The notes under the pieces are model-generated. The model had not been told where the DNA came from. It saw nothing but the letters and a program-made list of their open reading frames with translations, and made no database searches. Of a stretch of DNA of 58,275 nt, positions 2,307 to 54,614 are shown piece after piece. Both the position numbers and the translations under genes were made by a program. The stretch lies in NCBI GenBank assembly GCA_964485475.1, contig CAZAKB010000003.1, forward strand, positions 1-58,275. Direction: 5' to 3'. Each line of letters opens with the position of its first letter. The first letter of the stretch is position 1. The DNA comes from an uncultured bacterium. Its GTDB lineage: Bacteria > Fidelibacterota > UBA2242.

Positions 2307-2343
2307 TTGCAATTATGATAACCCCGGCTTATCGTTTTAATAA
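2307..2343. promoter_or_regulatory. Tandem palindromic putative activator (UAS) sites
   Basis: TTGCAATTATGATAA (2307-2321) and TTATCGTTTTAATAA (2329-2343), 22-bp period, ~120 bp upstream of the -24 element at 2461. Confidence 0.7.
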
Positions 2344-2459
2344 TTTCTGGCTGCCAACGATTATAAATTATTTCCATATTCCGTTCTATCTAAAGATTTT
2401 TTCATCGTGATATTTTTTAAAAAATGGAAGGGTGCCTGATTGTCCCGCTGATAAGTATC

Positions 2460-2475
2460 TGGCTTAGTTTTTGTC
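2460..2475 (+). promoter_or_regulatory. Putative sigma54 -24/-12 promoter
   Basis: TGGCTTAGTTTTTGTC (GG-N10-GT), 15/16 identical to the element upstream of the second SSS gene. Confidence 0.72.
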
Positions 2476-2593
2476 TATAAAATGGCGATATGTGTATCTA
2501 TTTTCAAAAACTCAGGAATCCGGGATTTTTGACCTATGAGTTTTCAGTGCAGTTTTTTTTGTCACCGGTGCATCAAATTAGAAAGGGTGAGAA

Positions 2594-4159
2594 ATGAATT
2601 TTTCAATAGTTGATTATGTGGTTTTTATTGGGTATATCCTGTTTATTATCGGGCTGGGACTCTGGGTTTCCCGTGAAAAAAAGGGACATCAAAAGGATTC
2701 CAGCGATTATTTCCTGGCCAGCAAATCCCTGCCATGGTGGGCAATTGGCGCCTCACTGATTGCGGCCAACATTTCAGCTGAGCAATTCATCGGCATGTCT
2801 GGGTCCGGATACGTCATTGGTTTGGGTATCGCCACCTACGAATGGACTGCTGCAATTGCACTGATTGTGATAGCTAAATTCTTTTTGCCGATTTTTCTAA
2901 AAGAAGGTATTTATACCATGCCGCAATTGCTGGAAATCCGCTATGACCGGCGTGTACGAACCGGGCTGGCAGTGTTCTGGCTGCTGCTCTATATTTTCGT
3001 AAATCTGACCTCGGTTCTCTATCTTGGTGCCCTGGCCCTGCGGACAATTATGGGCATTCAGCTAATGTATGGAATTATAGGCCTGGCGGTTTTCTCGGCG
3101 CTGTATACAATCTATGGCGGCTTGAAAGCAGTCGCCTGGACAGACGTTGTGCAAGTTACAGTTTTGATAGTCGGCGGCCTGGTAACAACCTTTTTTGCCC
3201 TGAATGCTGTCAGCGGTGGTGAAGGTTTTTTGAGGGGTTTTGCCGATTTGATTCATCAGGCGCCAGAAAAATTTGACATGATTCTGGACAAGTCTAATCC
3301 CAATTTCAAGGAATTGCCCGGGTTGGGTGTGCTGCTGGGCGGAATGTGGATGGCACATTTCTTCTACTGGGGCTGCAATCAGTACATCACTCAGCGGGCA
3401 CTGGCGGCAAAAAACATCAAAGAAGCCCAGCGCGGCCTGATGTTTGGCGGGTATCTGAAAATCCTCACCCCGTTGATTGTGGTCATTCCCGGTATCGTGG
3501 CATTCGCCTTAAAAGCCGATATCGTCAAGCCGGATGAAGCCTATCCCTGGTTGCTGAGCAACTTTGTGCCCATGGGACTGAAGGGCCTGGCATTTGCCGC
3601 ACTTATTGCCGCTATTGTTTCGTCACTGAGTTCCATGGTCAACAGCACGGCAACAATTTTTTCCATGGATATTTACAAACAGATTATTAAAAAGGATGCT
3701 TCCGAATCCCAGTTGGTGCTCACCGGCCGGATTGGCAGCGCCGTAGCGTTGATTATCGCGGTACTGATTGCACCAACGCTCACGTCACTGGAGCAGGCGT
3801 TTCAATTCATCCAAGAATTCACCGGTTTTATCAGTCCCGGAATTTTCGCGATTTTCATTTTCGGACTTTTCTGGAAAAAGGCCACAGCCAATTCCGCGCT
3901 CTGGGCTGCGGTCCTGACCATTCCGTTATCTCTTGGAATAAAAGCACTGATACCCACATTGCCGTTTTTGAACCGTATGGGCATAGTCTTTGTCATTCTC
4001 AGTATAATTGTGATTGCCATTACCCTGGTGGAATCCCGGGCAGATGATCCGAAAGCGATAAAAATCGAGAAAGGTCTGTTTCATACCGAGACGATTTTTA
4101 ATGTCGGTTCTATTGGAATATGCGCTATTCTGGCGGTTTTCTATATACTTTTTTGGTAG
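2594..4159 (+). CDS. Sodium:solute symporter (SSS/SLC5, sodium/glucose cotransporter-like)
   Basis: DYFLASKSLPWWAIGASLIAANISAEQFIGMSGSG, YGGLKAVAWTD and NQYITQRALAA motifs; many hydrophobic helices. Confidence 0.95.
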   Translation: MNFSIVDYVVFIGYILFIIGLGLWVSREKKGHQKDSSDYFLASKSLPWWAIGASLIAANISAEQFIGMSGSGYVIGLGIATYEWTAAIALIVIAKFFLPIFLKEGIYTMPQLLEIRYDRRVRTGLAVFWLLLYIFVNLTSVLYLGALALRTIMGIQLMYGIIGLAVFSALYTIYGGLKAVAWTDVVQVTVLIVGGLVTTFFALNAVSGGEGFLRGFADLIHQAPEKFDMILDKSNPNFKELPGLGVLLGGMWMAHFFYWGCNQYITQRALAAKNIKEAQRGLMFGGYLKILTPLIVVIPGIVAFALKADIVKPDEAYPWLLSNFVPMGLKGLAFAALIAAIVSSLSSMVNSTATIFSMDIYKQIIKKDASESQLVLTGRIGSAVALIIAVLIAPTLTSLEQAFQFIQEFTGFISPGIFAIFIFGLFWKKATANSALWAAVLTIPLSLGIKALIPTLPFLNRMGIVFVILSIIVIAITLVESRADDPKAIKIEKGLFHTETIFNVGSIGICAILAVFYILFW

Positions 4160-4234
4160 TCAATGTCTCTTTTTAAAAGACGTTATCTGGCCATGTCCGC
4201 GAGACATTTTATGCTTTTAAATTGGATAAAATCA

Positions 4235-5275
4235 ATGCAGATGATTAAACTAATGTTATCATTAACTATCGCAGCCATGCTGACGTTTTGCGGAACCGAT
4301 ACCGTGAATGAAAAAGAGACACCTGAAGCAATTGACATTGACCCCTTCGAGATTAACAGCCGGATGTATCCCGGTATTAATCTGGGCAATGCCCTGGAAG
4401 CACCTGAAGAGGGCGACTGGGGTGTTACCATTCAGGATGATTATTTTCAAATAATCAAAAATGCCGGCTTCAATCACGTCCGAATTCCCATACGATGGTC
4501 CACCCACGCCGCAATCGACACTCCTTACACGATTGATGTTCTGTTTTTAAATCGCGTAAAACAAGTCATTGACATTGCACTCGCCAGTAATCTATACACG
4601 GTCATCAATATTCACCATTATGAAGAGATTTTTCAAAATCCCGCAGGGCACAAAGACCGGTTTTTGACACTATGGCAACAGATAGGCACCAATTTCCGGG
4701 ATTATCCTTCAAGTCTTGTATTTGAAATTTTGAACGAGCCGCATGATAATTTTACACCGGAGTTCTGGAATCAGTATTTCCCTGAAGCGCTGGACATCAT
4801 CCGGGAAACCAATCCCAACCGCACGGTGATTATTGGAACTGCCGGCTGGGGCGGCATCAGCGCGCTGGAACAACTTCAATTGCCGGCTGATGATGAAAAC
4901 CTGATTGTGACCATTCATTATTACGAACCGTTCACTTTCACCCACCAGGGGGCAGAATGGGTCGCCGGGGCCGACGCCTGGCTGGGAACAACCTGGTCCG
5001 CCACATTGAATCAGGTGACCGATATGAAAAACCATTTTGACCAGATCAAAGCCTGGGCCGATGGACACAACCGTCCGGTATATCTGGGTGAATTCGGCGC
5101 TTACGGTCGGGCAGACATCGAATCTCGGCGGTTATGGACTGGCCATATCGTCAGCCAGTGCCGGCAGCATAATTTCAGCTGGGCATATTGGGAATTTTGT
5201 TCGGGGTTCGGAGCATGGGACCCGAATTCCAGAACCTGGCACGAATTATTGCTCCAGGCCCTGATCCAGGACTGA
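4235..5275 (+). CDS. GH5 endoglucanase (Thermotoga Cel5A/GH5_25-like), probable lipoprotein
   Basis: GINLGNALEAP.EG.WG, RIPIRW, INIHHY, FEILNEP, HYY.PF.FTHQGA.W, LGEFG and WAYWEF motifs; lipobox-like LTFC. ORF track start is 4163; ATG 4235 is preferred. Confidence 0.9.
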   Translation: MQMIKLMLSLTIAAMLTFCGTDTVNEKETPEAIDIDPFEINSRMYPGINLGNALEAPEEGDWGVTIQDDYFQIIKNAGFNHVRIPIRWSTHAAIDTPYTIDVLFLNRVKQVIDIALASNLYTVINIHHYEEIFQNPAGHKDRFLTLWQQIGTNFRDYPSSLVFEILNEPHDNFTPEFWNQYFPEALDIIRETNPNRTVIIGTAGWGGISALEQLQLPADDENLIVTIHYYEPFTFTHQGAEWVAGADAWLGTTWSATLNQVTDMKNHFDQIKAWADGHNRPVYLGEFGAYGRADIESRRLWTGHIVSQCRQHNFSWAYWEFCSGFGAWDPNSRTWHELLLQALIQD

Positions 5276-5277
5276 TT

Positions 5278-7257
5278 CTATTTCAGGTAAAGCATTGGCT
5301 TGACCGTTTGCTGATCAGAATTCATATTCAGTTGATAAAAGTAGACACCGGCACCAACCTGTCTACCCCAGGCGTTTGTTCCATCCCAAATGATGTTTGT
5401 CAATCCGGCAGGTAACTTCCCGGAAACCAGATCCGTAACCCGTGCGCCTTTCATATCAAACACAGTCATTTGAATCTCGGTCGGCCGGGTTAAAATGACC
5501 GGTATGGTTGTACGGCTGTTGAACGGATTGGGGTAATTTTTTCCAATGTATAAGTATGATGTAACTTTTTCGATAATGGAATTATCCAGAAGTGAAAAAC
5601 TCATTTTTCGGAGATTAAAACCCCCTCTGATAAAATTCAATCTCATGCTGTGGGTCCCACGTGGCAGTTCGACAGAATCTTCGGTTATCGTCTGCCAGTT
5701 ATCCCAACCTCCCGTATTTGGGAGATTTAATGATTGGATAATGACCTGATCATCGATCAATACCTGCACCTGTCCGTTGGTTGATGTACTTGCAATCTGA
5801 AAGCTGATATTGTATTTACCATCATAGGCAATTTCTGCAGTATATTTCACCCATTCATTATCTTCAATCCAACCGATATTATAAAACCCATCTTTTTCCT
5901 CAATGTCAACGCCATCGTTCCGATAAGTATAGCCAAGATTCCAGGGTTGATTTACATCCCAACGGATTCTTTTATACTCTGTATCGAAATAAGCCACTCC
6001 ATTAGTACCCAGATCATAATTCACTGCTTCAATCGCTCCGGGAATAACGTTTATTGCATAGGGCTTCGACACCGACCCAAACTCCGGATCAGTGATTGCA
6101 GCAATTACATCGGGTCGATAAATACAATTTTCGAGTTTCAAATTATTGGCCATCTCAGTCAGGGCTGCAAGTGCAAATGACTGTGACGGTTTGGCGGTAT
6201 TGCCACTCCAATAGTCGATAATCTCTTGATATTCAGGTGCTATTATCGCCGATAACGGGCTAGTCACGGTATCGAATTTTTTATGAGCCCACCAATTCCA
6301 GCCGATATCCTGCTGATCCATTAATTTGACAGTCTCGCAGAACCAGGGATTGGAGTTCTCACCGGTTTCGCCCAGCCAGAGCGGTGTAATGGTCTGAGTG
6401 CGCAGGCTCCGGTATTGTTGGATAGAACCGATATCGGTTTCACTCCAGTACTTGTGAAACGCCCAGACCAGATTACTGTCAAATCGAGGAGACAGACCCG
6501 AAAAATCTGTGGCATACCAATTCCCTTCTATAAAGACAATATGATTATCATCGACTTCCCGGACGGCATGAGTGAGCCGCACAAAGAAAGCCCGAAAGTC
6601 CGCTGTACTATAACCGTTCGGCAGCACCGGCTCATTCAACAGATCATAACCAATAATCCACTCTTCATCTTTATATCGTTCGGCAATCCGTTTCCAGATT
6701 TCCACGGTTCTATCCTGGTTTGCCGTTTCGGTCCAGAGTTTTGCTTCACCATCACTGTCACTGATATTTCCGGCGTTTTGACCGCCGGGTGCACAGTGCA
6801 TATCGAGAATAACGTAGAGGTTATTCCGCTTACACCAGACCAACAGCGTATCGATAATATCAAATCCGTCTTCAATAAACACATCTGGTGAATCGATTGG
6901 TGAAAAGAACTCATAATGAAATGGCAACCGAATATGGTTGAAACCCCATTCCGCAATCAACTCTATATCCGCTTCAGCAACATAGTTTTTCCGGTAGAGT
7001 TCAAAGAATTTATCAGCCTCTTCTTCGCCAATCACATCAATGATCTGGTTCCTGATGGATGATGGTGAACCGTAGCCGGGTGTATGCAGCATATACCCTT
7101 CCGGAACCAGCCAGCCGCCCAGGCCGTAACCCTTCAGAATAAATTGATTTCCATCAGGATCAACAATATCAAAGCCGAGGGTTTTAAAAAATCCAGCCTG
7201 AAGAATGCTCCAATTCAATAATAGCGCCGGAATGATAATACGCAATAAAATCTTCAT
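5278..7257 (-). CDS. GH5 (GH5_46-like) glucanase + CBM6 + T9SS-type sorting domain
   Basis: LKGYGLGGWLVPEGYM, ILDMHCAPGGQ, YDLLNEP and WLGETGEN motifs; CBM6-like IGWIEDNEWVKY...PNTGGWDNWQT; NYPNPFN. ATG at 7257 overlaps the upstream stop (ATGA). Confidence 0.9.
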   Translation of the reverse strand: MKILLRIIIPALLLNWSILQAGFFKTLGFDIVDPDGNQFILKGYGLGGWLVPEGYMLHTPGYGSPSSIRNQIIDVIGEEEADKFFELYRKNYVAEADIELIAEWGFNHIRLPFHYEFFSPIDSPDVFIEDGFDIIDTLLVWCKRNNLYVILDMHCAPGGQNAGNISDSDGEAKLWTETANQDRTVEIWKRIAERYKDEEWIIGYDLLNEPVLPNGYSTADFRAFFVRLTHAVREVDDNHIVFIEGNWYATDFSGLSPRFDSNLVWAFHKYWSETDIGSIQQYRSLRTQTITPLWLGETGENSNPWFCETVKLMDQQDIGWNWWAHKKFDTVTSPLSAIIAPEYQEIIDYWSGNTAKPSQSFALAALTEMANNLKLENCIYRPDVIAAITDPEFGSVSKPYAINVIPGAIEAVNYDLGTNGVAYFDTEYKRIRWDVNQPWNLGYTYRNDGVDIEEKDGFYNIGWIEDNEWVKYTAEIAYDGKYNISFQIASTSTNGQVQVLIDDQVIIQSLNLPNTGGWDNWQTITEDSVELPRGTHSMRLNFIRGGFNLRKMSFSLLDNSIIEKVTSYLYIGKNYPNPFNSRTTIPVILTRPTEIQMTVFDMKGARVTDLVSGKLPAGLTNIIWDGTNAWGRQVGAGVYFYQLNMNSDQQTVKPMLYLK

Positions 7258-10199
7258 CGCAAAAACAGGCACTTTCCAGTAAATTCCCGGTTATCCCAGG
7301 CCAACCGGACAAAATAAACGCCTGAGGCGACCATCTCGCCGGTAGAATCCCGGCCTTCCCAGATAAACCGGTGGCTGCCGGAATTCAATCTTTTCTGTAA
7401 GGAATACACCCGCCGCCCGTTTAAATCATAAATTGACAATGTGGCCTGTTTTTCTGATGGTAATAAAAATTCAATCACCGTTTGGGAGTTGAAAGGATTC
7501 GGATAAATCCGTTGCAAACCGAATTCGTGCGGTACCAGATTTGACTTCACCCAGTTTTCTTCAATCAAATCGCCAAATGCTTCGATTCCGAACCAAACAG
7601 TGGGTGTTTGGGTCTGATCCAGCAATATCCTGAAACGGCCATTTTCCTGGTGAAAAACAACCTGTGGAAGACCCCTCTCGGCACCAACGCTATCTAAAGG
7701 AAAAACATAGAGTGAATCGGCATTGACATTCAATTCAACATACACAATGACCGGTGCAATTTCCGTCGGCGCTTGGCCCCAGTTATTGTGAAATGTAAAA
7801 ATATCATCCCAGATCATATTCTGATTCTGAATTCGGGTTGACACCGTGATCATGGATTTTCTGGAAATATTCAAAGGTCGATCTTCCAAGGATATCCAGG
7901 TTAGTGTCGCAACATTGCCGGCGCCGAGCAACTCCAAGTCACCAACGGTATAATTTGTATAGTCATGCAGCCAGCCGGAGAGTCCGATGAACTTTGGAGT
8001 CTTTACGGTAAACAAATCGTAATCCCAGGTCAGCTCGTCGGTATCTGTTGAGACAGGGAACGAAGGATCGAATTCAACCGGATTTACCCACTGTAACGCC
8101 TCAAAGGTCTCAATTCTGAGCGCATGTTTCAGCGCAAGATTCTGGGCAATCGGAAAATACCCTGTCCACGAACCGCCATCGTTTTTAGGTGCCAGCAGAA
8201 TATTGTCAGGACTATAACCTATGGTCAGCATTTCTTCGGCGGGACGGATATACCCTTTCCTAAAAGCCCGGGCACAGGCCGGCAACAGCGCCATTATTAC
8301 CGTATTGCGATGAATACTGAAATAACTACTGATAAAATCCGACTCCCAGTCGTCCGCCGAACCACTATTGTAATCGAACAGTATTAAAGCGTCTATATCG
8401 TGAAATCCTGCGTAGGCTGCGGCCATCAGAACACCTTCACTTTGAAAACGGTTCGGGAATGGATGGTTGTATTCACTGACCGTAAAAGGTTTGCCTAAAA
8501 CTGGAACACCGCCAAACAATGAACTGATGGTTCCGCCGGATTCACTTGTCAGCATAGAAGTATTGTTAATTTTCCAGTCAGTGCTTGACCAAGGCGTATT
8601 CGGGAATTGCGGATGGTCCCAGTAGGCGTGATTATCCAGGTAGTCCAGCCGGGACTGGGTCACTAAATCCCCGATGCCGACATTCCAGTTTGTGCCGGTT
8701 ATTGGAACACGGACACCAAGTTCATCCTTTAGGAATGTGGCCATTTCATCAAAAAAACGATTCTGCAATTCAATGTAGAATTGCGAAATATCACGTACCC
8801 GCTGATTGGAAAACTGCAAACATTCATTGTATCCTGTCCGGCGAACCGACTGGTCTTCCAGTGATTCTGAAGCCGTTAAACCGATAATAATATTATTGCC
8901 AAACGACACATTATCAAACCAATAAGAACCAGTAGAGACACCCAGATTAAAGGACAGGCGGGTATCGCCCACACAGGTCTCAGGTGCACGAAAAGCGAAT
9001 TGATACTCCTGCCATTCAGTACTTAGTGTAAAATTCTTTCCGGCATAATAGGTCCAGGGACTGGAATTTTTTTGAATAGCTAATCCAACTTCCCGATTCG
9101 CATCGGCGCGAGCAACAAAAGTGATAATATAAATGGAATCCATGGATATCGTCAGGGCTGACTGTTTCCATTGCAGATACCAACTTTCATCGCCCGGTTG
9201 CAGAACTGTCACACGGGCACAGCGTTCGCCTTCCCAGACATCTCCGACCAGAGTCATCAGCCCGTTGGCAGAATTATGCATTTCAAGTTCCCAGTGACCT
9301 TCCAAGGGCAAGGTCTCAAAACCCCCATCAGCAATTTGATTTATATACCGAGAAGAATCCAATTGGGCATTCCAAACCGACCGCAAAGTTGTCGTGTTTC
9401 CATATTTATTCACCAGGAATTCCGACCAGAGAGTGTCCAACAATTTTGAGTGGTGGCGGGTCAGTTTGCCGCCATCGCCAAAGGATTTTAGCATATCTTC
9501 CCGCCACATACGATACAATGAATTTTCATTGACGATTTCGACCATTGTCATTACCGGGTCACCCACTAGAGCCAGTCCTGTATAGGGATTGACATGCGTC
9601 AATAGTTGCCGGGCATATTCTTTTTGCAGTATTATTAAATCCGGATCAAATAAATTGACGCCCTTTCCAAAATCAAGCAACGAATCAGCATCAATTATTC
9701 CGTCAGATGCTTTAACTGTACGAGAACAATGCAGATTGATATTGGCGTATATGCCATTCGATTTCAATGCCTGAATCAAATATTCAAAACGATCCAGTGT
9801 CACTGGATTAAGATGGCGGGTATCCTGACCCCATTCAAACAAACTTTGACTGCTCCAGGGATTGTCCATGTGATGGAAACGGACAAGATTGATGCCCATT
9901 TTTCTCATCCGGCCGGCAATGAATCCAGCCTTGGACTTTACCGGAAATGCACCGTCGGCCGCTAGATTCACTCCCCAAAAACGCACACGCCGACCTTTAA
10001 TTCCAAAGTGACCGTCACCAGTGGTTGTGACAAATTCATCAGCCTGAATAGGACTATCTGTAAATTGTGGTAGAAATTTTTGGGTTGTCGTATCATCGGC
10101 CGGCAAATAAAAGGAGAAGCCTTTCTCAAAATTTTGGCCGTACCCATTTATTAGCCAGCACAATAGTATAAATATTAAGGGAAAGTATAATTTTTTCAT
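7254..10199 (-). CDS. GH148-like beta-glucanase with a CBM4/9-like module inserted in the catalytic domain + sorting domain
   Basis: RFWGVNL, INLVRFHHMD and EIVNENS (acid/base), then a CBM4/9-like insert (IADGGFE...TLSTEWQEYQFAF), then DNHAYWDHP and TVSEYNH (nucleophile); IYPNPFN CTD. The split architecture matches that described for GH148. Confidence 0.75.
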   Translation of the reverse strand: MKKLYFPLIFILLCWLINGYGQNFEKGFSFYLPADDTTTQKFLPQFTDSPIQADEFVTTTGDGHFGIKGRRVRFWGVNLAADGAFPVKSKAGFIAGRMRKMGINLVRFHHMDNPWSSQSLFEWGQDTRHLNPVTLDRFEYLIQALKSNGIYANINLHCSRTVKASDGIIDADSLLDFGKGVNLFDPDLIILQKEYARQLLTHVNPYTGLALVGDPVMTMVEIVNENSLYRMWREDMLKSFGDGGKLTRHHSKLLDTLWSEFLVNKYGNTTTLRSVWNAQLDSSRYINQIADGGFETLPLEGHWELEMHNSANGLMTLVGDVWEGERCARVTVLQPGDESWYLQWKQSALTISMDSIYIITFVARADANREVGLAIQKNSSPWTYYAGKNFTLSTEWQEYQFAFRAPETCVGDTRLSFNLGVSTGSYWFDNVSFGNNIIIGLTASESLEDQSVRRTGYNECLQFSNQRVRDISQFYIELQNRFFDEMATFLKDELGVRVPITGTNWNVGIGDLVTQSRLDYLDNHAYWDHPQFPNTPWSSTDWKINNTSMLTSESGGTISSLFGGVPVLGKPFTVSEYNHPFPNRFQSEGVLMAAAYAGFHDIDALILFDYNSGSADDWESDFISSYFSIHRNTVIMALLPACARAFRKGYIRPAEEMLTIGYSPDNILLAPKNDGGSWTGYFPIAQNLALKHALRIETFEALQWVNPVEFDPSFPVSTDTDELTWDYDLFTVKTPKFIGLSGWLHDYTNYTVGDLELLGAGNVATLTWISLEDRPLNISRKSMITVSTRIQNQNMIWDDIFTFHNNWGQAPTEIAPVIVYVELNVNADSLYVFPLDSVGAERGLPQVVFHQENGRFRILLDQTQTPTVWFGIEAFGDLIEENWVKSNLVPHEFGLQRIYPNPFNSQTVIEFLLPSEKQATLSIYDLNGRRVYSLQKRLNSGSHRFIWEGRDSTGEMVASGVYFVRLAWDNREFTGKCLFLR

Positions 10200-10222
10200 G
10201 GGTTCAAGTCCCTGCTACTCTT

Positions 10223-11095: not shown

Positions 11096-11143
11096 GATTT
11101 TTATTCCTGCCAAAATCCGTTGGTTATGTATCAGTAGGATCGA

Positions 11144-14465: not shown

Positions 14466-14565
14466 ATTACAAATTACCCCCATGTTGTTCTGGGGGTAGT
14501 TTATAACGTTCAAAACAATTTTCATAATGGTTAGTCAAAGCGATCAGCTTTCATTATTACTCTCA

Positions 14566-41939: not shown

Positions 41940-41952
41940 AGTGTTACTTCTT

Positions 41953-44427: not shown

Positions 44428-44529
44428 TGATCCTCCCATAAAATTGTTATTCTTTTAAAAATCCTTGTTCGATTATTGAATTATTATGATAATTCACTGC
44501 GCTTTTTAAATCCATTGCAGTAAAAACCC

Positions 44530-45897: not shown

Positions 45898-45947
45898 TTT
45901 ACTACCTCTTTCACTTCTCCTCGCCGGAATCTGAACATTCTGACGGT

Positions 45948-48900
45948 TTATAGTTTGATCATTACCTCAATTCTAATAACCTCACCACTTCGGCTGAAGA
46001 CCAGGGCTGATGTATCTTTGTCAAGGAACAAAGAGGGGAATGTTTTTACCGACCCTTTTTTAACATACACTCTGACTTTTTCAGTTCGGGTAAGTTTATA
46101 AACGACGGGAACCTGCGCGATGGTAAAGGCCAGAGAATTTTTTTCCAGTGAAAGTGTCGCCTTTTCCCCGGCGTGATTATAATACTGAAATTCTCCAGCT
46201 CCGGTTAAGAATTCTTTTTTGTCCAACAAGCCAACGGCAAAGGAAAGTTCACCGTTTTTCACAACGATGCCCAGTTCACCGAACCGAGAAATCACATCTT
46301 CCTTTACCTGGCCGGTCATTCCCGGTTGCTGAACGCCACAGTGTCCCGGTGTATGGGAATAGGGGTCCGTCGGGAATGCGCCATAATCGGCAGGGTTTTT
46401 ATGAAATCCGATGCCTGCCCGGATTTTATAATAAAAATCACGAATCTCTGTGATTTCAGTTTCCGTGGCGCCGGAATTCACGGCCATATAGAAATTTTCC
46501 TGTACCGACAGCAACAGTTTCGAAACCATGTGCCAATAGATGCTACCTAATCCTTCATATTTGTAAAAGGTTCCTGAGCGACCGGTGAAGGACTGATGAT
46601 CGAAAACTGCTTCATAAATATCCAGAATTTTTGTTTTATCTTTCGGGCTGATATTTTTTCTGTCCAGAGCTTCGTCCAATAATTTCGCATTGCGGAAACT
46701 TTTATGAAAATGCACATCGCCATTGACATCTTTCAGGACGATGTCCCGGTCCTTTGCCGCAATGAGTTTATTGATCAATAAGGAGGTTTCCAGTAATTGT
46801 GGTGGAATGATGTTTTTTTCAGTGAAGTGTGCCAACTGTCTGTCTGGATAAAGAATGTAACTGTTCTGATCTTTGCGGTAAAGCGGGCTCTTTTCTAGCG
46901 ACCGCAACAGGTTCAAGGCTTGTTTTGTTGAAAGGTATCCGCTGCTGAGTGCTGCGACCTGGCCTTCAAGCATTTCATAAAGATGGCGGATGGATATTTC
47001 ATTCTCTTTCAAAGTGATGAGATTGTAGGTTTGAAAGAGATCATCGGTGCGTTTATTGGCAGCGATGGAATGGTCAATGTATTTTAACGTAATTATTAGA
47101 AAAGCCGCCAACTGACTGGCACTAATGTTTTCAAAATTTCCGCTGAAACCACCAGTGTAAATTGTTTGGCGATGTTTGGTTCCAGCCGTTGACAATTGGT
47201 CTGTAAGATCTTTCCGATTCTTGTCAGAGATTGTGGATAAGAGCAGCCCAAGATTGTTTTTAAAAATACCCTCAATTTCTGTGAATAGTTGCGCTACCGT
47301 TCCGGATATTTCAAAATTTTCATCGCCGGCGTCAGTGAAGAGATCAATGGCAAAGCTGATATACCGTCGCAGGTAGTACAGCGTCACCATTGAAGCACCG
47401 TTGCCAACAAGAGCGTTGTTAGCATCGTTCCATTCGGGCCTCTGTGTGTTCATCCAGATTCCAGCTTCAGGGATAAAATTAGATAACTTTACCAGCATGG
47501 GAACCAACAGTTTTTCCGCCAGGTTCACGGTATAAATATCATCATTGGAATCGAACATGAATTTACCATCGCTGCCCAGTTCCGCGACCCGATCATTTAT
47601 TACGGCATTCAATTCACTGTCAAAATCAACAGTATTGCAAGGATCCTGCAAGATTTCCTGATAGCTTTTAATCTTATAGGGAACATTGGCATAGGTGAAG
47701 ATTTTATTTGTAAGCAGTGCCTGCAGTTTTCCCCGGTGATAGTTGCAGGAAATTTCCAGCAGTTTCTGGAGATAGATGATCTGATGGTCGCCCCAGTAAC
47801 CGATGTAGGACCATGCATCGTGGTGATCGAGTACTTCCCAGTCAAAACCGTCGCGCACCACTCTGTAGGGATTGTAGCCATCGGCAGTCGAAGCATTGAC
47901 AAACTTGGTGATCATACTCTCGATAAATTCCGGGAACGAATGGGCAAGTGCTTCCCAGTTCTGGAAAATATCGCGCCAATTTCCCTGGTAATTCAGTTTT
48001 TTGTGCCCATTGTCATCTTTAATATCGATGGAAAATGTATTCCACGGACGGCTCGGGTCACCATGACGGCGGCTGAAACTGAGTGGCAGATATTCATGGC
48101 GCAGCCGTGTGAAAACGGCGTTAGTTCCGGCAGCGGATGTCAGCAGCGCCTGAAAATCGATCTCATCGGGCATTGCTTTGATAAGGGAATCGTATTTTTC
48201 AGCGGTCTTATTATTGGCGGCCAAGATGAATTTGGTGAAATCCTTTTTGTCAATTACGTAATCATCATCAAATATACCTCCGCGCATAATATTGAACATG
48301 GTGTTGGCGCTGTGGCGGAATACATTTAGCGCATCACTGGTCAGCTGGCAGCCATCGGCTTTGGCGATTTTTAATTGCAATGCTTCTGTGCTTCTGGCAA
48401 TTGCTTTTTTCACCTCAACTGCAGGATCGTTGGAAACCAGAATTGTCCGGCAAAGGGCCGCGACTTCAGATTGGTCCTTGTTCAGATCAATGATAATGTG
48501 CCAGGTTTTAGCGACGGTTGGTGCCAGCGAGACAACGGAATTGAGAAAATAAGCGCCCCGGTTGGCCCGGATGTCGGTCTCCTGTTGCAATGTCACGCCC
48601 CGGCGGAATTTTTCCAATTGCGTTGATGACAGCAATACAATCGCGTCGTCAAGACCGGCAGACCAGGCAATGGTAGCAGTCAGGGATTCGCTGGGTTCAG
48701 CCCGGTCGACGGGAACAGAGCTGAGCATGTAGAGGCCGAGTTTTACTTTTGGAATCAGCTCGCTCTTTTTATAACCGTCCACAAGGGTGCTGTATTCCAG
48801 CTGGAATTTACGGTCGATTCCGGACGGCAGTATGTTTTGAACACCATCGAGAATTTCGATGTAAACGGTTTGTCTTCCAATATTTTTCACAGTAGATTTT

Positions 48901-49376
48901 TTAACAAAACCAAACTCATCGGCGTTAAGCCAGGAATATTGAAACGTGACTTCGAGGTCATTGTTTATCTCTTCGAAAACCAGTTTGTTGCCAAGGAGAT
49001 TTTTATAGAGATTAAACCGGCAGTTATAAATATTGCGGTATTTTGCGGAAAAGGGTTCCCACAGATATTTTTTGTTATTTTTAGTAATAATGAAAATGGT
49101 CTTGCTGCCGGTAATGTCCTGAGAATCGTGGATTCTGTCATCAGTATAATAGGGAAACAGGGCGTTGTCAGCATCGCATCTGCCGGCAGTGAGCGCGCCG
49201 TTACTTGAAATATACATCCAGAGGTCGGACTCACTGACAATACTCATGAAAAAAGGCGGCATGGCATCGTAATTGGAAATTTTATAATGTTGCTCGCCAT
49301 CTATATTGACAATTTCGCCGCCAACTTTTTTTTCGTTCGTTTTTAACTCATTATTGCCTAAAAATACTCTGACCAT
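45948..49376 (-). CDS. GH149 beta-1,3-glucan phosphorylase
   Basis: 1142 aa, no signal peptide; PFFMSIVS, ALFPYYTDD, FSRRHGDPSRPWN, GNWRDIFQNWEAL, WMNTQRPEWNDANNALVG and DPYSHTP..QQPGMTGQVKED motifs; GH17/GH158 neighbours. Confidence 0.88.
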   Translation of the reverse strand: MVRVFLGNNELKTNEKKVGGEIVNIDGEQHYKISNYDAMPPFFMSIVSESDLWMYISSNGALTAGRCDADNALFPYYTDDRIHDSQDITGSKTIFIITKNNKKYLWEPFSAKYRNIYNCRFNLYKNLLGNKLVFEEINNDLEVTFQYSWLNADEFGFVKKSTVKNIGRQTVYIEILDGVQNILPSGIDRKFQLEYSTLVDGYKKSELIPKVKLGLYMLSSVPVDRAEPSESLTATIAWSAGLDDAIVLLSSTQLEKFRRGVTLQQETDIRANRGAYFLNSVVSLAPTVAKTWHIIIDLNKDQSEVAALCRTILVSNDPAVEVKKAIARSTEALQLKIAKADGCQLTSDALNVFRHSANTMFNIMRGGIFDDDYVIDKKDFTKFILAANNKTAEKYDSLIKAMPDEIDFQALLTSAAGTNAVFTRLRHEYLPLSFSRRHGDPSRPWNTFSIDIKDDNGHKKLNYQGNWRDIFQNWEALAHSFPEFIESMITKFVNASTADGYNPYRVVRDGFDWEVLDHHDAWSYIGYWGDHQIIYLQKLLEISCNYHRGKLQALLTNKIFTYANVPYKIKSYQEILQDPCNTVDFDSELNAVINDRVAELGSDGKFMFDSNDDIYTVNLAEKLLVPMLVKLSNFIPEAGIWMNTQRPEWNDANNALVGNGASMVTLYYLRRYISFAIDLFTDAGDENFEISGTVAQLFTEIEGIFKNNLGLLLSTISDKNRKDLTDQLSTAGTKHRQTIYTGGFSGNFENISASQLAAFLIITLKYIDHSIAANKRTDDLFQTYNLITLKENEISIRHLYEMLEGQVAALSSGYLSTKQALNLLRSLEKSPLYRKDQNSYILYPDRQLAHFTEKNIIPPQLLETSLLINKLIAAKDRDIVLKDVNGDVHFHKSFRNAKLLDEALDRKNISPKDKTKILDIYEAVFDHQSFTGRSGTFYKYEGLGSIYWHMVSKLLLSVQENFYMAVNSGATETEITEIRDFYYKIRAGIGFHKNPADYGAFPTDPYSHTPGHCGVQQPGMTGQVKEDVISRFGELGIVVKNGELSFAVGLLDKKEFLTGAGEFQYYNHAGEKATLSLEKNSLAFTIAQVPVVYKLTRTEKVRVYVKKGSVKTFPSLFLDKDTSALVFSRSGEVIRIEVMIKL

Positions 49377-49449
49377 GAAATTCCTTTTGAAAAAACTTTG
49401 TTCATTATCTCTGTGCTTCTCTGTGTCTTGGTAGTTTAAAAATTATCCT

Positions 49450-50718
49450 CTATTTCACAAAAAACGGAATGTTGGCATGGGCCGCATTACCATTATCATC
49501 ATAAACATAAATAAACAGACGATAGGCGCCGGTTTGTGACGGTGAACTGAAAATCAACGAATTATCTGTTTTCTTTATGATTGTACAGTTCGCTACTGGC
49601 GGTTTGTTTTCCTCGTCGCCGCCGGTACGCTTGTCTGTGGTTTCATGCAGTATTTCCCACTGAATCATCAGTGGCCGGTCTTCCGGATCGGTCACCCATA
49701 CTTCGGCTTTATGCTGTGTATCCGGTCGGATTGTAACGCTTTGGTAGGCGTTCTTTCCATTAAGACGCAGAGAATCCAGAACCGGCGCCCTGTCGCTTGG
49801 CCAGTTGCCTTTCCAAAGATGATGCATTACATCAATGGCCTGAGTTTTGGCGCCATCTTGCAAAAACATTCCGTACCAGGTTGGCGTACGCTCCTGCTTT
49901 GCGCCCCAGAAAAACACATAACCACCAAGGCAATTGGGATCTGAGAAAATGTTATCGTTATATTCTTGCTGATACAAGTCTGCTTTTTCTTTACTGGTGA
50001 ATTCGACTGGTTCACCCCATTCGGTTTTGGGAACTTCCCAATGGCCAAATGTGCCCCATTCGCCCAAAAAATAGGGCTTCCCCCAGCCAAAATTCTTCAG
50101 AAATTGCGACAACGCCGGCAGTCCGCCGTATGCATTGATGCAGAGAATATCAATGTCCGGGCACCGTTCCTTGACGTAATCCACTTCGTCTTTTTCGATA
50201 AAGGCAGTGGTGGTGGTAACAGGATGATTGCCGTCAACATTGTGAATATAAGCAGCAAGTTGCTGGACCGCGTCCCAAACCGTTGGATTTGTATAATTCA
50301 AATCCAGTTCGTTACCGACATTCCACAGCAGGAGATTCGGATGATCCTTGTATTTGATAATAGCGTTTTTGAATTCCTCAAACTGCTTTGCCACGGCGTC
50401 AGCATCACTGTAGTTAAAGCCCTGCCGCTCCTGTTCCAGCCAGAGTCCTGCGCAAACAGTAAAATTGTATTTTTCCGCCATGGCAAAGGCTTCTTCCCAT
50501 TGATCGATGCCCCAGGTGCGGATGGAATTGCCTCCGGCGTCTGCCAGTTCGGCATAATGATCTTCAATGCCGGCACCTTTGATAAAATAGGGTTTATCAT
50601 CTCGCAGCAATTGATAACCGCTGTCGGTTTGCCGGACTTCAACTTTTTGAATTTTTCCCGAATTGCAGGCTGTCTCAAACAGTAAAAACGCAATTAAAAT
50701 CAATGTGATTTTATGCAT
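49450..50718 (-). CDS. GH158-like endo-beta-1,3-glucanase, probable lipoprotein
   Basis: YQLLRDDKPYFIKGAG, AGGNSIRTWG, KYKDHPNLLLWNVGNEL, INAYG, LGEWG and WGAKQERTPTWY motifs; ETAC lipobox. Confidence 0.8.
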   Translation of the reverse strand: MHKITLILIAFLLFETACNSGKIQKVEVRQTDSGYQLLRDDKPYFIKGAGIEDHYAELADAGGNSIRTWGIDQWEEAFAMAEKYNFTVCAGLWLEQERQGFNYSDADAVAKQFEEFKNAIIKYKDHPNLLLWNVGNELDLNYTNPTVWDAVQQLAAYIHNVDGNHPVTTTTAFIEKDEVDYVKERCPDIDILCINAYGGLPALSQFLKNFGWGKPYFLGEWGTFGHWEVPKTEWGEPVEFTSKEKADLYQQEYNDNIFSDPNCLGGYVFFWGAKQERTPTWYGMFLQDGAKTQAIDVMHHLWKGNWPSDRAPVLDSLRLNGKNAYQSVTIRPDTQHKAEVWVTDPEDRPLMIQWEILHETTDKRTGGDEENKPPVANCTIIKKTDNSLIFSSPSQTGAYRLFIYVYDDNGNAAHANIPFFVK

Positions 50719-50753
50719 ATCTGTACCTTTTAATAGTATAAATTTGCAGATTT

Positions 50754-52988
50754 TTAATCCACAACCTCAAATTCAACAGGCTTGCCGCTGTCGGAATCCG
50801 GCACAATCCAGAATTGAAATTTTCCCGGCTCGGTTACCTCCTGCATTTGCTGATTGAAAAAGGCCAAATCAACAGTGGACAGCACAAATTCCACAACTTT
50901 GGATTTACCGGGTTCCAGTGTAATGCGCTCAAAACCTTTCAGCTCTTTCACCGGCGGTGTGATGCTGGCAACAACGTCACGAATGTAAAGTTGTACAATT
51001 TCATCGGCTTCCATTTTTCCAGTATTGGTGATTTTGGCGGAAACCGTAAACGAGTCACCCATTTTCACAGTACTTTTGGATATTTTCACGTCGGAATATT
51101 CAAATGTCGTATAGGAAAGTCCGAAACCAAAAGGAAATTGCGGTTTGTAGCCGGCGTCGATGTAATGGGATTCATTGCCAAGCGAAGTTTGCCAGGCCCG
51201 TACCGGAATATCGTCCATCTGTACAAAACTGTCAGCCCGCGGCGGACGGCCCGTATTTTTATGATTGTAATAGAGCGGAATCTGTCCCACCACTTTCGGA
51301 AAAGTTATTGGCAATTTCCCTGACGGTGATGCAATTCCGAAAATCAGGTCCGCCAGCGCCGGACCGCCCATGGTACCGGGATGAAATGTAAAAAGTACCG
51401 CGTCAACATCATCTAGAATATTACCAAGAGTAATCGCGCGTCCGGCCATGAGCACTAGGACGATAGGCTTGCCAGTTTGAATCACCTCCCTGATCAGCGC
51501 TTCCTGGGCGCCGGGCAGATCAATATTGGCGCGGCAGTGGGCTTCGCCTGTGATGATGGCTTCCTCGCCCATAAACATTAGCACCACATCAGATTTTTGG
51601 GCGGTTTCAACAGCTTCAGCAAAATATTTGTGGTCTTTGTCGCGGGAAATCTCCAGACCTTTGCAATAATGAATACTGATTTTATTACCATATTCCCTTG
51701 TGAGCGTCTGCAACGGCGTTTGAGTATCTTCAATCTGCTTGTCAAAAGTCCAGGTACCCAGTTGTTCGAATGGATCGTCAGCCATTGGGCCGATAACTGC
51801 TAGATTTTTTATATTTTGGGATAATGGCAAAAGATTATCCCGGTTTTTCAACAGGACGATGCTTTGGGTTGTGATTTGTTTGGCAGTGGCCAGATAATCG
51901 TCATTGACCAAAGGTGGTAATTTCGCCGGATCAGCATACGGATTTTCAAACAACCCTAGCTGGAATTTTATGCGCAGAATATTGCGGACGGCATTGTCAA
52001 TGGTCTCTATTTTGACTTTGTCAGATTTTATCAAACCGGCCAGGAACTGTTCGTAATTCGACGAAGCCATTTCCATATCAATACCGGCGTTGGCGGACTT
52101 TTCGGCTGCATCTTCTCCATCACTACAGTATCCGTGCACGATCATTTCGGAAATAGCGGCCCAATCACTGATGACGAAGCCGTCGAAGTTCCATTCGTCA
52201 CGCAAAATTTGCCGGAGAGTAAACTCGTTGGCCGTACAGGGAACACCGTTGAGGTCATTAAAGGCCGGCATAACGGAAGAAACCCCAGCGGCGACACTGG
52301 CCCTGAAAGGTTTCAGGTACACTTCCCGCAGCTGCTGCTCCGGAATCCAGGCAGTGTTGTAATCGCGGCCGCCCTCACCTGCACCGTAGCCTGCAAAATG
52401 TTTGGCACAGGCGGCAATAGCGTCCGGCCGGGAAAGGTCATCGGTTTGAAAACCTTTGACCATTGCCACAGACATTGCGCTGGTGAGATACGGATCTTCG
52501 CCGAAACTTTCGGAAATTCGCCCCCAGCGGGAATCCCTGGCAATGTCCATCATCGGCGCGAAGGTCCAGTTAACACCCACAACTGCGGCTTCTTGGGCTG
52601 AAATCCGGACGCCGGCCATGACACCGTCGGGATTCCAGGTAGCGGCCAATCCCAGAGGAATCGGAAATATTGTACGGAAGCCGTGAATTACATCGCGGCC
52701 GACCAAAAGGGGAATACCATTTGGCGATTTTTCAACGGCCAGTTTTTGGGCTTTGCGGATATTTTCAGGATCAACTTCATTGAGGATAGAACCAATTTTG
52801 CCGGACCGGAACATCGCTTCGTTGCCCTGAAAACCGTGGCGCTGGGTCATCTGGCCAATCTTTTCTTCCAGCGTCATTTTATTCAGCAGTTGAGTGATTT
52901 TATTTTCAATTTCGGGGAATTGACCGGACATACCAAATCCTATATTTAGTAAAAAAACAATTGACAAAAAGGCTACTTTATTCAACAA
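50754..52988 (-). CDS. bglX: GH3 periplasmic beta-glucosidase (BglX-like)
   Basis: MTLEEKIGQM, DVIHGFRTIFPIPLG, RWGRISESFGEDP, KHFAGYG, FVISDW and PFGFGLSYT motifs. Confidence 0.93.
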   Translation of the reverse strand: MLNKVAFLSIVFLLNIGFGMSGQFPEIENKITQLLNKMTLEEKIGQMTQRHGFQGNEAMFRSGKIGSILNEVDPENIRKAQKLAVEKSPNGIPLLVGRDVIHGFRTIFPIPLGLAATWNPDGVMAGVRISAQEAAVVGVNWTFAPMMDIARDSRWGRISESFGEDPYLTSAMSVAMVKGFQTDDLSRPDAIAACAKHFAGYGAGEGGRDYNTAWIPEQQLREVYLKPFRASVAAGVSSVMPAFNDLNGVPCTANEFTLRQILRDEWNFDGFVISDWAAISEMIVHGYCSDGEDAAEKSANAGIDMEMASSNYEQFLAGLIKSDKVKIETIDNAVRNILRIKFQLGLFENPYADPAKLPPLVNDDYLATAKQITTQSIVLLKNRDNLLPLSQNIKNLAVIGPMADDPFEQLGTWTFDKQIEDTQTPLQTLTREYGNKISIHYCKGLEISRDKDHKYFAEAVETAQKSDVVLMFMGEEAIITGEAHCRANIDLPGAQEALIREVIQTGKPIVLVLMAGRAITLGNILDDVDAVLFTFHPGTMGGPALADLIFGIASPSGKLPITFPKVVGQIPLYYNHKNTGRPPRADSFVQMDDIPVRAWQTSLGNESHYIDAGYKPQFPFGFGLSYTTFEYSDVKISKSTVKMGDSFTVSAKITNTGKMEADEIVQLYIRDVVASITPPVKELKGFERITLEPGKSKVVEFVLSTVDLAFFNQQMQEVTEPGKFQFWIVPDSDSGKPVEFEVVD

Positions 52989-53003
52989 TACCTCAGTGGT
53001 TCT

Positions 53004-54350
53004 CTAATCAGAATTTCGCGCTTCAAGTTCCTTTTCAATTTTCGCCATGGTATTGTCATCCAGCGGATAAAATAGGGCCGCAATTGTTGCTATTATAGTA
53101 GCGGCCGCTGGAATATAACTCATCATCAGCCGTATTCCGGTAATCGTCTCCGCATTTTGTACTACATTGGGTTCAAACTTGAAAATCGACAGCATCCAGC
53201 CGGCCAGTCCTCCGCCGAGAGCCATCCCAAATTTCTGTGAAAAAGTGGCCGCTGAAAATACGAGTCCCGTGGCCCGCCGCCCATTTTTCCATTGAGAATA
53301 ATCAGCGGTGTCCGCGTACATCGCCCAGATCAGCGGTGCCTGTGGGGCCATTACAAAGGAAATGATAATATGCACTGCGAAAATCAGTCCAATCTGATCT
53401 TTGGGCACATAGTAGAATATTATGGTTAAAATGCTTGACAGACCCATTACAATCAAGTATAATTTTTTCTTGCCCAGTTTTTTCGATAGAAAAGCGGTAC
53501 AGGCAACACCGGCGATAACCGCAACGGTACCGGAGACCATGAATACCGAAGCCAGGAATTCATTCCCAATATAGTACTTGAAATAATACATGATTGCACC
53601 CATACGGATGATGACATAGCCCAAAGTGAACATTCCCATGACTAGCAAAATCATCCATGGACGATTGCTCAGCAGGTCTTTCAGATCATTTTTCAGAGAG
53701 GTCTTTTGGGAGATCGGTGGTTGAACCCTTTCCTTCGTTGATGCAAAGGTGATATAGAAAAGAATCATCGCCAGAATTCCGTAAACGCCCATTGTAATCG
53801 GAAATCCTACCGACTGATTGTCGCCGCCGAAAAATTTCACCATGGGGAGCGTCGCACCCTGAATTATAAACGCTCCGGCAAAGGCCAGAACAAACCGGTA
53901 GGTCGAGGCGCTTGTCCGCTCCGTGCTGTACGGTGAGAGTACACCCATCAAGGCTGAATATGGAATATTTATAGCCGTATAGGTCATCATCATGAGGATG
54001 TATGTAATGTATGCGTAAACGATTTTTCCAGTGATGCTAAGATTCGGCGTTGTGAACATCAGGACTCCGATGACGGCCATCGGAAGCATCATCCAGAGTA
54101 AATACGGGCGGAATTTGCCCCACTTCGTATTGGTCCGGTCGGCAATGACACCCATCATCGGGTCATTAATGGCATCCCAAAACCTTGAAATCATAAATAG
54201 CGTTCCCGCCGCTGCTGCCGGAATTCCAAAGATGTCTGTATAAAAGAAAAGCAAAAAATTAATATACATCTGGAAGTACAAGTTCGATGCTGTATCACCC
54301 AGTCCGTAGCCGATTTTTTCTTTTACTGACAATTTACCGGAATTATTCAC
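53004..54350 (-). CDS. MFS glycoside-pentoside-hexuronide (GPH):cation symporter
   Basis: EKIGYGLGD, WDAINDPMMG..DRTNTKWGKFRPY, NIPYSAL and WAMYADTADY motifs; GTG start after AGGAG. Confidence 0.93.
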   Translation of the reverse strand: MNNSGKLSVKEKIGYGLGDTASNLYFQMYINFLLFFYTDIFGIPAAAAGTLFMISRFWDAINDPMMGVIADRTNTKWGKFRPYLLWMMLPMAVIGVLMFTTPNLSITGKIVYAYITYILMMMTYTAINIPYSALMGVLSPYSTERTSASTYRFVLAFAGAFIIQGATLPMVKFFGGDNQSVGFPITMGVYGILAMILFYITFASTKERVQPPISQKTSLKNDLKDLLSNRPWMILLVMGMFTLGYVIIRMGAIMYYFKYYIGNEFLASVFMVSGTVAVIAGVACTAFLSKKLGKKKLYLIVMGLSSILTIIFYYVPKDQIGLIFAVHIIISFVMAPQAPLIWAMYADTADYSQWKNGRRATGLVFSAATFSQKFGMALGGGLAGWMLSIFKFEPNVVQNAETITGIRLMMSYIPAAATIIATIAALFYPLDDNTMAKIEKELEARNSD

Positions 54351-54422
54351 GCAGGTCTCCTGTTACTATTAATCTTGCTAAATTTTAAATTAATTGCTGC
54401 ATATCACAAACTGAAATAACTC

Positions 54423-54438
54423 GCATAAGTTGTGCCAA
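54423..54438 (-). promoter_or_regulatory. Sigma54 -24/-12 promoter
   Basis: Minus strand TTGGCACAACTTATGC, close to consensus TGGCAC-N5-TTGC, ~73 bp upstream of the MFS start. Confidence 0.85.
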
Positions 54439-54577
54439 ATTTATAATTATTGATTGATAATTATAAAAAATTCTATCGCGTATCCAATTTATCGAGGGAT
54501 ACAGATTTTTTATTTAACAATTGCGCCTTTTCCTATCCTTAAAATCAATAATGTATTCGGATTGATAATCGGAAAGT

Positions 54578-54614
54578 TTATTAAATTAATAAAAACCATT
54601 TATCATTTTGATAA
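54578..54614. promoter_or_regulatory. Tandem palindromic putative activator (UAS) sites
   Basis: TTATTAAATTAATAA (54578-54592) and TTATCATTTTGATAA (54600-54614), both perfect 6-3-6 palindromes, 22-bp period. Confidence 0.78.

Follow-up and report, generated by a model that had tools for sequence, protein, structure and literature searches.

Tandem palindromic sites and sigma-54-type promoters mark a candidate regulon in a beta-glucan utilisation locus of an uncultured Fidelibacterota bacterium

We analysed a stretch of 58,275 nucleotides (hereafter the window), which is contig C3 of assembly G000, a genome of 3.52 Mb (3,518,513 bases) in 352 contigs with 42% GC and an estimated completeness of 87.7%. 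The window carries a glycan locus in which five operons are each preceded by a putative sigma-54-type −24/−12 promoter and by tandem palindromic sites. Our principal interpretation, to which we assign a probability of roughly 0.8, is that these five promoters are activated by the window's own sugar-sensing NtrC-type activator, bound at two to three tandem sites 40-170 bp upstream. We performed a Pfam scan of 29 large open reading frames (ORFs) of the window, three of which had no Pfam match. The enzymes recognised were five glycoside hydrolases (GHs) of family GH5, two GH16, two GH3, a GH94 phosphorylase, and GH2- and GH17-like proteins, and the carbohydrate-binding modules (CBMs) belonged to CBM4_9, CBM6 and CBM9. 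Several proteins end in type IX secretion system (T9SS) tails, and the transporters comprise two Na+/solute symporters (SSF), an MFS_2 sugar symporter and a TonB-dependent receptor. Judged by this gene content, the best explanation of the window is a locus for utilisation of a beta-glucan (laminarin, mixed-linkage glucan or cellodextrin) in a Candidatus Neomarinimicrobiota (Fidelibacterota) bacterium. Its operons are as follows:

2594-5275, plus strand: operon 1, with an SSF Na+/solute symporter and a GH5 enzyme (ORF list and Pfam)
5278-24650, minus strand: operon 2, with a CBM9/T9SS-tail protein, the TonB-dependent receptor, a 1165-residue protein, a PorV-like barrel, a SurA-like protein, two GH16, a CBM4_9/T9SS protein and a GH5-CBM6 protein (Pfam; gene order kept in relatives)
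24922-26544, minus strand: operon 3, with the second SSF symporter (Pfam)
26735-30986, minus strand: sensor-regulator triad in the middle of the locus, with co-oriented genes for the activator, a histidine kinase and a solute-binding protein
31209-37158, minus strand: operon 4, with a GH2-like protein, a GH5 enzyme and a GH94 glucan phosphorylase (Pfam)
37337-54350, minus strand: operon 5, with the MFS_2 sugar symporter, a GH3 enzyme, a GH2_C-like protein, a 1142-residue protein, a GH17-like protein, a GH3-PA14 protein, a GH5 enzyme and a CotH/LTD protein (Pfam)

The receptor cassette of operon 2 (14566-21998) stands in for a SusC/SusD pair and consists of the TonB-dependent receptor, the 1165-residue protein, which has no Pfam match, the PorV-like barrel and the SurA-like protein. 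The 29 large ORFs yielded no reported member of the SusD family; after the receptor gene come those for the 1165-residue protein and the PorV-like barrel. The same scan reported no domain of hybrid two-component systems (HTCS), SusR, extracytoplasmic function (ECF) sigma factors or anti-sigma factors, in agreement with an earlier proposal, made in a preliminary description of this DNA, that the locus is controlled otherwise than by HTCS, SusR or ECF sigma factors.

The three genes of the triad encode the following proteins:

26735-28189, minus strand: NtrC-type enhancer-binding response regulator, with a receiver domain, an AAA+ sigma-54 activation domain with a GSFTGA loop, and a C-terminal three-helix domain at residues 438-480
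28196-29665, minus strand: histidine kinase, in which a domain of some 180 residues lies between two hydrophobic segments (read by eye) and HATPase_c forms the C-terminal domain
29673-30986, minus strand: solute-binding protein of the SBP_bac_1/8 type, with an N-terminal hydrophobic anchor and without transporter partner genes, proposed to be the sugar sensor

Pfam placed the receiver domain of the activator (Response_reg) at residues 12-119 (E value 2.6e-10) and the AAA+ domain (Sigma54_activat) at residues 171-337 (E value 1.3e-69), and it also recognised AAA_lid_14. The motifs that define the family are conserved: Walker A reads GKSGTGKE, Walker B reads FLDE, and the loop that contacts sigma-54 reads G-(S/A)-FTGA. 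Across 20 orthologues, E16, D17, D64, T93 and K119, the Walker motifs and the contact loop are invariant or nearly so, as are L467, A470, P471, N473 and R476 in the last helix. Among proteins of solved structure, the best matches are Aquifex NtrC4 (4l4u) and NtrC1 (1ny5), with E values of about 1e-76. By its sequence, then, the protein carries all the hallmarks of the NtrC-type family. An AlphaFold model built from the orthologue alignment had a mean predicted local distance difference test score (pLDDT) of 84.8, and its C-terminal helices (residues 438-455, 460-466 and 471-480, pLDDT 82-87) are consistent with a Fis-type DNA-binding domain. The orphan binding-protein gene adjoins the kinase and regulator genes in the same orientation and has no ATP-binding cassette (ABC) permease or ATPase genes beside it; the triad of binding protein, kinase and activator is conserved in the loci of relatives and occurs again in paralogous loci.

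Candidate enhancers, given here without a strand, were located at five places:

2307-2343: enhancer 1, with a distal site at 2307-2321 (3 mismatches) and a proximal site at 2329-2343 (exact), 22 bp apart
24872-24909: enhancer 2, with sites at 24872-24886 and 24895-24909, both exact, 23 bp apart
26677-26714: enhancer 3, with sites at 26677-26691 (exact) and 26700-26714 (2 mismatches), starting 21 bp past the stop codon of the activator gene
37279-37316: enhancer 4 (weak), with sites at 37279-37293 and 37302-37316, 2 mismatches each
54554-54614: enhancer 5, with three sites at 54554-54568 (2 mismatches), 54578-54592 (exact) and 54600-54614 (exact)

The preliminary description had listed ten 15-bp palindromes with spacings of 22-23 bp, and the sequence bears out every start position and spacing, as well as the identity of TTATTAAATTAATAA at 26677 and 54578. 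Its consensus, TTATYR-N3-TRATAA, proved exact in six of the ten sites (2329, 24872, 24895, 26677, 54578 and 54600) and inexact in the other four, with two mismatches each at 26700, 37279 and 37302 and three at 2307. The third site of enhancer 5 (54554), 24 bp before 54578, was absent from its list. Weak extra sites at 2399 and 2440 in the first gap were set aside as background-like, given that 1355 of 58,260 window positions reach four mismatches. Six large gaps precede operons of the glycan locus, and the module of sites and promoter was found in five of them. The sixth gap (30987-31208), ahead of the sensor operon, contains no TGGC-N8-TG element and no good site; the sensor operon is presumably expressed constitutively.

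Each of the five modules includes one predicted promoter:

2460-2474, plus strand: P1, TGGCTTAGTTTTTGT, 124 bp from the proximal site centre, with the SSF symporter gene beginning 134 bp beyond it (start codon at 2594)
24784-24798, minus strand: P2, TGGCCCGATTTTTGA, 81 bp from the proximal site centre
26590-26604, minus strand: P3, TGGCTTAGTATTTGT, 80 bp from the proximal site centre
37232-37246, minus strand: P4, TGGCGTGCTTTTTGT, 40 bp from the proximal site centre
54423-54437, minus strand: P5, TGGCACAACTTATGC, the sole window promoter with the canonical GC at −12; the centres of the enhancer 5 sites lie 124, 148 and 170 bp from it

All five TGGC-N8-TG(C/T/A) elements stand where they had first been described, with the first T at 2460 (plus strand) and at 24798, 26604, 37246 and 54437 (minus strand). 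The register GG-N10-G holds in 5/5 window promoters and in 24/24 modules from relatives, and each window element points at the gene that follows. A loose version of the promoter pattern matched 36 times in the window; seven of these matches fell in gaps between ORFs, and five of those seven lie beside site pairs. Only one of the five window promoters, and two of the 24 modules from relatives, follow the −12 G with the canonical C. Because other intergenic sigma-54-like elements of G000 read TGGCAY-N5-TTTG(A/T) (contigs C6, C22, C23, C24, C30, C50, C65, C91 and C155, among which C22, C30, C65, C91 and C155 also carry other activator genes), T or A at −12 seems to be the norm of this lineage and not a defect of these five promoters.

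We assessed the sites against chance both in simulated DNA of matched composition and across the genome, as had been suggested earlier, and found that tandem pairs are not equally frequent in unrelated intergenic DNA. The exact single pattern occurs 16 times in the 3,518,513 bases; six of these occurrences lie in the 58 kb window and are the only six that are intergenic, the other ten falling inside ORFs on a crude ORF map. Tandem pairs (21-24 bp apart, at most two mismatches in total) occur four times in the genome, all in the window, and the backward pattern gave none. Simulated third-order-Markov intergenic DNA (30 runs, 451 kb, 61% AT) yielded a mean of 0.03 pairs and a maximum of 1. At up to three mismatches there are eight pairs in the genome, five of them in the window; the three outside it were dismissed, those on C28 and C340 lying inside ORFs and the one on C35 having no promoter element. 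The loose promoter pattern has a density of 0.22 per kb per strand, with about 0.1 expected by chance beside a given pair, and all four regions recovered by the pair search alone have a TGGC-N8-TG element pointing away from the pair at 80-124 bp. The sites are more than chance, and sites and promoters are essentially unique to the glucan locus within this genome.

Next, we compared G000 with 40 relatives (41 genomes), searching for the tandem pattern at up to two mismatches. The pattern was present in 31/41 genomes, with 131 strand-hits against 31 for the backward control. Orthologues of the activator, 59-93% identical to it, were found in 17 of the 40 relatives, and all 17 carry the tandem motif, so that the motif is conserved near orthologous regulators, a check that the preliminary description had proposed. 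In four of five genomes checked, the next activator paralogues stand at 38% identity; in G019 there is one at 52% too. The motif is present as well in four genomes of another family, whose activator matches are at 55-56%. Among the 15 relatives without an activator match, seven have some motif hit, two of them at one mismatch or fewer. This co-occurrence of orthologue and motif, together with the position of the sites beside the gene, supports the assignment of the motif to the regulator at 26735, which had been proposed from the window alone.

The arrangement of the modules was also kept. In nine of 12 loci from the same order that have an orthologue, the pair starts 12-63 bp past the activator gene, with a TGGC... 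element 62-205 bp further on; of the remaining three loci, one ends early, in another the distal site is degenerate, and in the last the pair lies 370 bp away. Across 20 fetched loci, a promoter element lies within 260 bp of 20 of 28 tandem-pair rows (one, at 200 bp, is doubtful), and the eight rows without one are L006:4443, five overlapping rows in L012, L020 and L022:7264. The relatives' elements always lie downstream of the sites and always point toward the downstream gene. The promoter consensus of 24 distinct modules from relatives is tTGGCTTgaTTTTTGTc, an element that in the fetched loci usually stands 46-146 bp downstream of the motif, and in these modules the left half of the distal site is less regular than that of the proximal site. 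In an alignment of 11 genomes across the gap past the activator gene (the P3 region), the half-sites and the GGCT core are the only invariant positions. Gene order is likewise kept across genera, running from the triad through [sites and promoter], the symporter, a second [sites and promoter], the CBM9 protein, TonB receptor, large protein, PorV-like barrel and SurA-like protein to GH16, and the separately promoted SSF_a-GH5 pair is kept too.

For the individual enhancers, pairs orthologous to enhancer 1 precede SSF_a genes in relatives, a genome of the same genus (G006:C296) carries a pair identical to enhancer 2, and most fetched orthologous loci share the position of enhancer 3. The orthologue of the weak enhancer 4 in the same-genus genome G006 has only one mismatch and aligns base for base; in the alignment of the P4 gap between the window and G006, nothing but the two sites, the promoter and the region of the start codon is conserved. 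The distances between sites and promoters group around 72, 81 and 124 bp. As a separate observation on the activator family, the reading frames of the orthologues in G025:C6, G011:C1 and G013:C62 each contain one in-frame stop codon (TAA or TGA), which may be a sequencing error or the mark of a broken gene.

Taken together with what is established for the activator family, these features suggest a route from substrate to promoter. The membrane-anchored solute-binding protein would bind a glucan breakdown product outside the cytoplasmic membrane and signal to the adjacent histidine kinase, which would phosphorylate Asp64 of the activator. Activator dimers on sites about two helical turns apart could then nucleate the ATPase ring and loop to the promoter, and the ring would open the sigma-54 closed complex at each of the five promoters.

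Several observations weigh against this model, and we set them out here and with the alternatives below. The pair 37279/37302 is weak and not significant alone, since 41 pairs in the genome reach four mismatches against 26 for the backward pattern, and P4 lies only 40 bp from the proximal site centre of this enhancer. The distances between sites and promoters are only moderately in phase with the helix (Rayleigh R 0.41-0.44 at 10.5-11 bp, n=29, from loci that are mutually related), which is at most suggestive. A Pfam search of the last 64 residues of the activator found no helix-turn-helix family, HTH_8 included, at E values up to 10. Finally, part of the window was present in thirteen lake-water metatranscriptome runs, six of which held half or more of the sampled words, and we aligned contigs of four runs; being assembled, these contigs carry no information on 5' ends or expression levels. 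One of these RNA-library contigs (22323-25100) bridges P2 and its enhancer, which is read-through transcription or contaminating DNA in that run. Another contig stops at 24688 beside adapter letters, some 85 nt past the start predicted for P2, and a further adapter end lies inside a gene at 26114; we draw nothing from either end.

The palindromes could be real and yet be operators of another protein, either the product of a paralogous activator gene on contig C26 or an unlinked regulator, for example a repressor, with affinity for TTATCA/TGATAA half-sites. We consider this unlikely. A paralogous triad lies at G000:C26:143-4378, with binding protein, kinase and activator 42-54% identical to those of the window (activator 54%), and the last helix of its activator, APSNFHRSCKELG, is very similar to that of the window activator, APPNFFRICKELK. 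On C26, a symporter-like gene is preceded by two direct copies of TTATAATTTTGATAA, 19 bp apart (about 7600-7645; L066), and paralogue loci in another family carry TGATAA-N4-TTATCA-N3-TGATAA together with TGGCATTCTAATTGA. Because the C26 paralogue has a similar last helix and the same half-sites occur at its loci, cross-binding between the two activators is possible. However, nine relatives that have the orthologue and no paralogue match keep tandem pairs at 22-23 bp (G001, G002, G003, G009, G010, G011, G012, G023 and G024), whereas G005 and G029, which hold only a 54-55% paralogue, have no tandem motif. No other DNA-binding family was found among the 29 large window ORFs, three of which match nothing in Pfam, and none was noticed in the orthologous loci compared. 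An unlinked global regulator also fits poorly with a genome that has no intergenic exact copy of the motif elsewhere. A Fur-like global regulon was considered because TGATAA half-sites are present; it was rejected, as no intergenic copy lies outside the locus and the half-sites are in everted order relative to the Fur box.

Alternatively, the TGGC-N8-TTG element might not be a sigma-54 promoter, with transcription starting at a sigma-70-type promoter and the element serving some other role, which we regard as quite unlikely. The −12 base is T or A and not the canonical C in four of the five window promoters. In addition, the preliminary description had held that a genome lacking rpoN would refute its reading, and rpoN was indeed not found in the 87.7%-complete G000 assembly with PF04552, PF04963 or a tblastn search using a relative's RpoN. 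The absence is likely an assembly gap, given this level of completeness, the 16 full-length sigma-54 activators that G000 encodes, and the presence of rpoN in 20/20 relatives, including all six of the same genus. Two loci with 59% orthologues, L045 (5932-6065) and L048 (6168-6290), have exact tandem sites about 85-100 bp before the start codon and no TGGC/TGGT element before the gene; the mode of control may differ there. Against a sigma-70-type origin of transcription stand the exact GG-N10-G register in every one of the relatives' modules, the constant placement of the element downstream of the sites and toward the following gene, the intact sigma-54 contact loop of the activator, the supply of activators and rpoN just described, and the similar elements near other activator genes.

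A third reading, in which no specific regulator is involved and the sites are AT-rich DNA that arose by chance or is architectural (bent or IHF-like), is very improbable and strongly disfavoured: the motif is AT-rich, the intergenic DNA is 61% AT and the 37279 pair alone looks like background, but four pairs against 0.03 expected, all at one locus, half-sites conserved between diverging flanks, and the co-occurrence of motif and orthologue across the 40 relatives all argue for specific sites.

Returning to control by the NtrC-type activator, a similar arrangement was found beyond the phylum. At loci labelled Ignavibacteriaceae or 'Bacteroidetes bacterium', whose activators are 53-57% identical, tandem sites lie directly past the gene and TGGCTTAATTTTTGG follows 46-69 bp further. 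Melioribacteraceae genomes hold clusters of exact tandem pairs 68-78 bp from TGGTAT-N5-TTTG(T/A), before symporter and GH2-like genes. The −24 element beside the tandem sites is TGGT, not TGGC, in L070, L071, L073 and L074 (Melioribacteraceae genomes G054, G057 and G047). At least 1948 proteins match the activator at an E value of 1e-100 or below, among them proteins of Melioribacter roseus P3M-2 and Rosettibacter firmus, both cultured. As far as sequence comparison can tell, sites and promoters keep their position by activator orthologues across genera and, in altered form, across two phyla. We lean, with some reserve, toward a broader proposal, namely that one code serves SusD-less glycan loci in at least two phyla of the Fibrobacteres-Chlorobi-Bacteroidetes (FCB) group, Fidelibacterota (Marinimicrobia) and Ignavibacteriota. 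This code would consist of TTATYR-N3-TRATAA tandem sites, a lineage-specific sigma-54 promoter (TGGC or TGGT at −24; TTTG plus T or A at −12), and a triad of binding protein, kinase and NtrC-type activator in the role of HTCS, SusR or ECF sigma factors.

Some further features of the window were noted in passing. At the end of operon 5 (37337-40906) lies the gene for a 1189-residue CotH-kinase-family protein with lamin-tail and chitobiase-C domains, which is kept at 46-50% identity in the orthologous loci of four relatives and whose role in a glucan locus is unexplained. Upstream of enhancer 5, at 54727-54850, the palindrome CGTATACGACGTATACG is followed by an apparent 3' half of a tRNA (...GGTTCGAGTCC...); ARAGORN predicted no tRNA in the window. 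This element recurs at G000:C26:1-145 and at positions 780-945 of L063 (G022:C41), just downstream of a paralogous activator gene, and parts of it were matched on several contigs from three genomes of the same genus. A remnant integration site or a mobile repeat is a possible origin. In all four RNA-library runs, contigs break at 22352 (22323-22352) and go on with an identical stretch of 255 letters that is unlike the window. A strain variant is the probable cause, or else an alternative junction of the receptor and CBM9 protein genes.

Marinimicrobia (Fidelibacterota) are abundant and almost entirely uncultured. A 2025 paper calls knowledge of their metabolism meagre and states that, to date, no enzyme of the phylum other than a GH16 laminarinase has been characterised (PMC12296878). 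For a major carbon source, our finding supplies a complete candidate regulon (five operons, about 25 genes), together with its proposed sensor and a code of operator and promoter. A bench test of the model is feasible, because Melioribacteraceae share the code and the cultured species Melioribacter roseus P3M-2 and Rosettibacter firmus carry proteins of the activator family. The sigma-54 promoter variant with a non-canonical −12 base would probably be under-called by position-weight matrices trained on Proteobacteria. If one code does extend across two phyla, the regulons and inducing substrates of abundant uncultured aquatic heterotrophs would become predictable from sequence alone. In the main texts searched, we found no publication that describes the sigma-54 system of this glucan locus or that ties sigma-54 to glycan loci in Marinimicrobia or Ignavibacteria. 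The main text of a cross-phylum survey of sigma-54 regulons (PMC12316311) mentions neither group; its supplements might hold promoter logos at phylum level.

NtrC, DctD, ZraR and Aquifex NtrC1 and NtrC4 have the same domain order as the window activator, that is, a receiver, an AAA+ domain with the contact loop, and C-terminal helices. The classical enhancer-binding systems have their dyad sites in pairs, from tens to about 150 bp upstream of the −24/−12 promoter. The site sequence TTATYR-N3-TRATAA is, to our knowledge, new. Unlike the classical systems, whose targets are nitrogen, dicarboxylate or zinc genes, the window has glycoside hydrolases, a TonB-dependent receptor cassette and sugar symporters as predicted targets; its promoters mostly have T or A at −12, and the C-terminal domain of its activator is not recognised by Pfam HTH_8.

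AioR, the regulator of a sensory system with a separate binding protein, is sigma-54-dependent. In that system, AioX-AioS-AioR, a periplasmic binding protein, a membrane histidine kinase and a cognate regulator are described as controlling a catabolic operon (PMC7565993, PMC5908839, PMC6011840). The sensor layout is alike, but the Aio ligand is an arsenic oxyanion and the hosts are Proteobacteria, as these papers present them, whereas the window has a binding protein of the sugar-type SBP_bac_1/8 and a five-operon glycan regulon. Closer in sensing logic is CuaD-CuaS-CuaR of Ruminiclostridium cellulolyticum, in which an extra solute-binding protein and a two-component system are reported to sense cellobiose and to induce its uptake and a GH94-type cellobiose phosphorylase (PMC5663094, PMC10384115). 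The window regulon would share both this logic and GH94. CuaDSR, however, belongs to a Gram-positive organism and serves an ABC importer, and the abstracts of these papers name no sigma-54 activator, promoter or enhancer for CuaR. The window instead holds symporters, a TonB receptor and T9SS-tailed enzymes.

Polysaccharide utilisation loci (PULs) of Bacteroidota likewise combine an outer-membrane TonB-dependent importer, surface or secreted glycoside hydrolases and their own sensor-regulator for one class of glycan, and they are controlled by HTCS, SusR or pairs of ECF sigma and anti-sigma factors. In contrast to them, the window has no reported SusD, HTCS, SusR or ECF/anti-sigma protein among its 29 large ORFs and has in their place a predicted sigma-54 activator with a separate binding-protein sensor. 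Sigma-54 also governs carbohydrate uptake and catabolism in the LevR- and CelR-type sugar regulons of Firmicutes, whose activators are regulated by the phosphotransferase system (PTS) and are not receiver-domain response regulators. For Clostridiales, a reconstruction of sigma-54 regulons has been published (PMC6615313). Set beside all of these systems, the one described here would be a new regulon and operator for a well-known mechanism.

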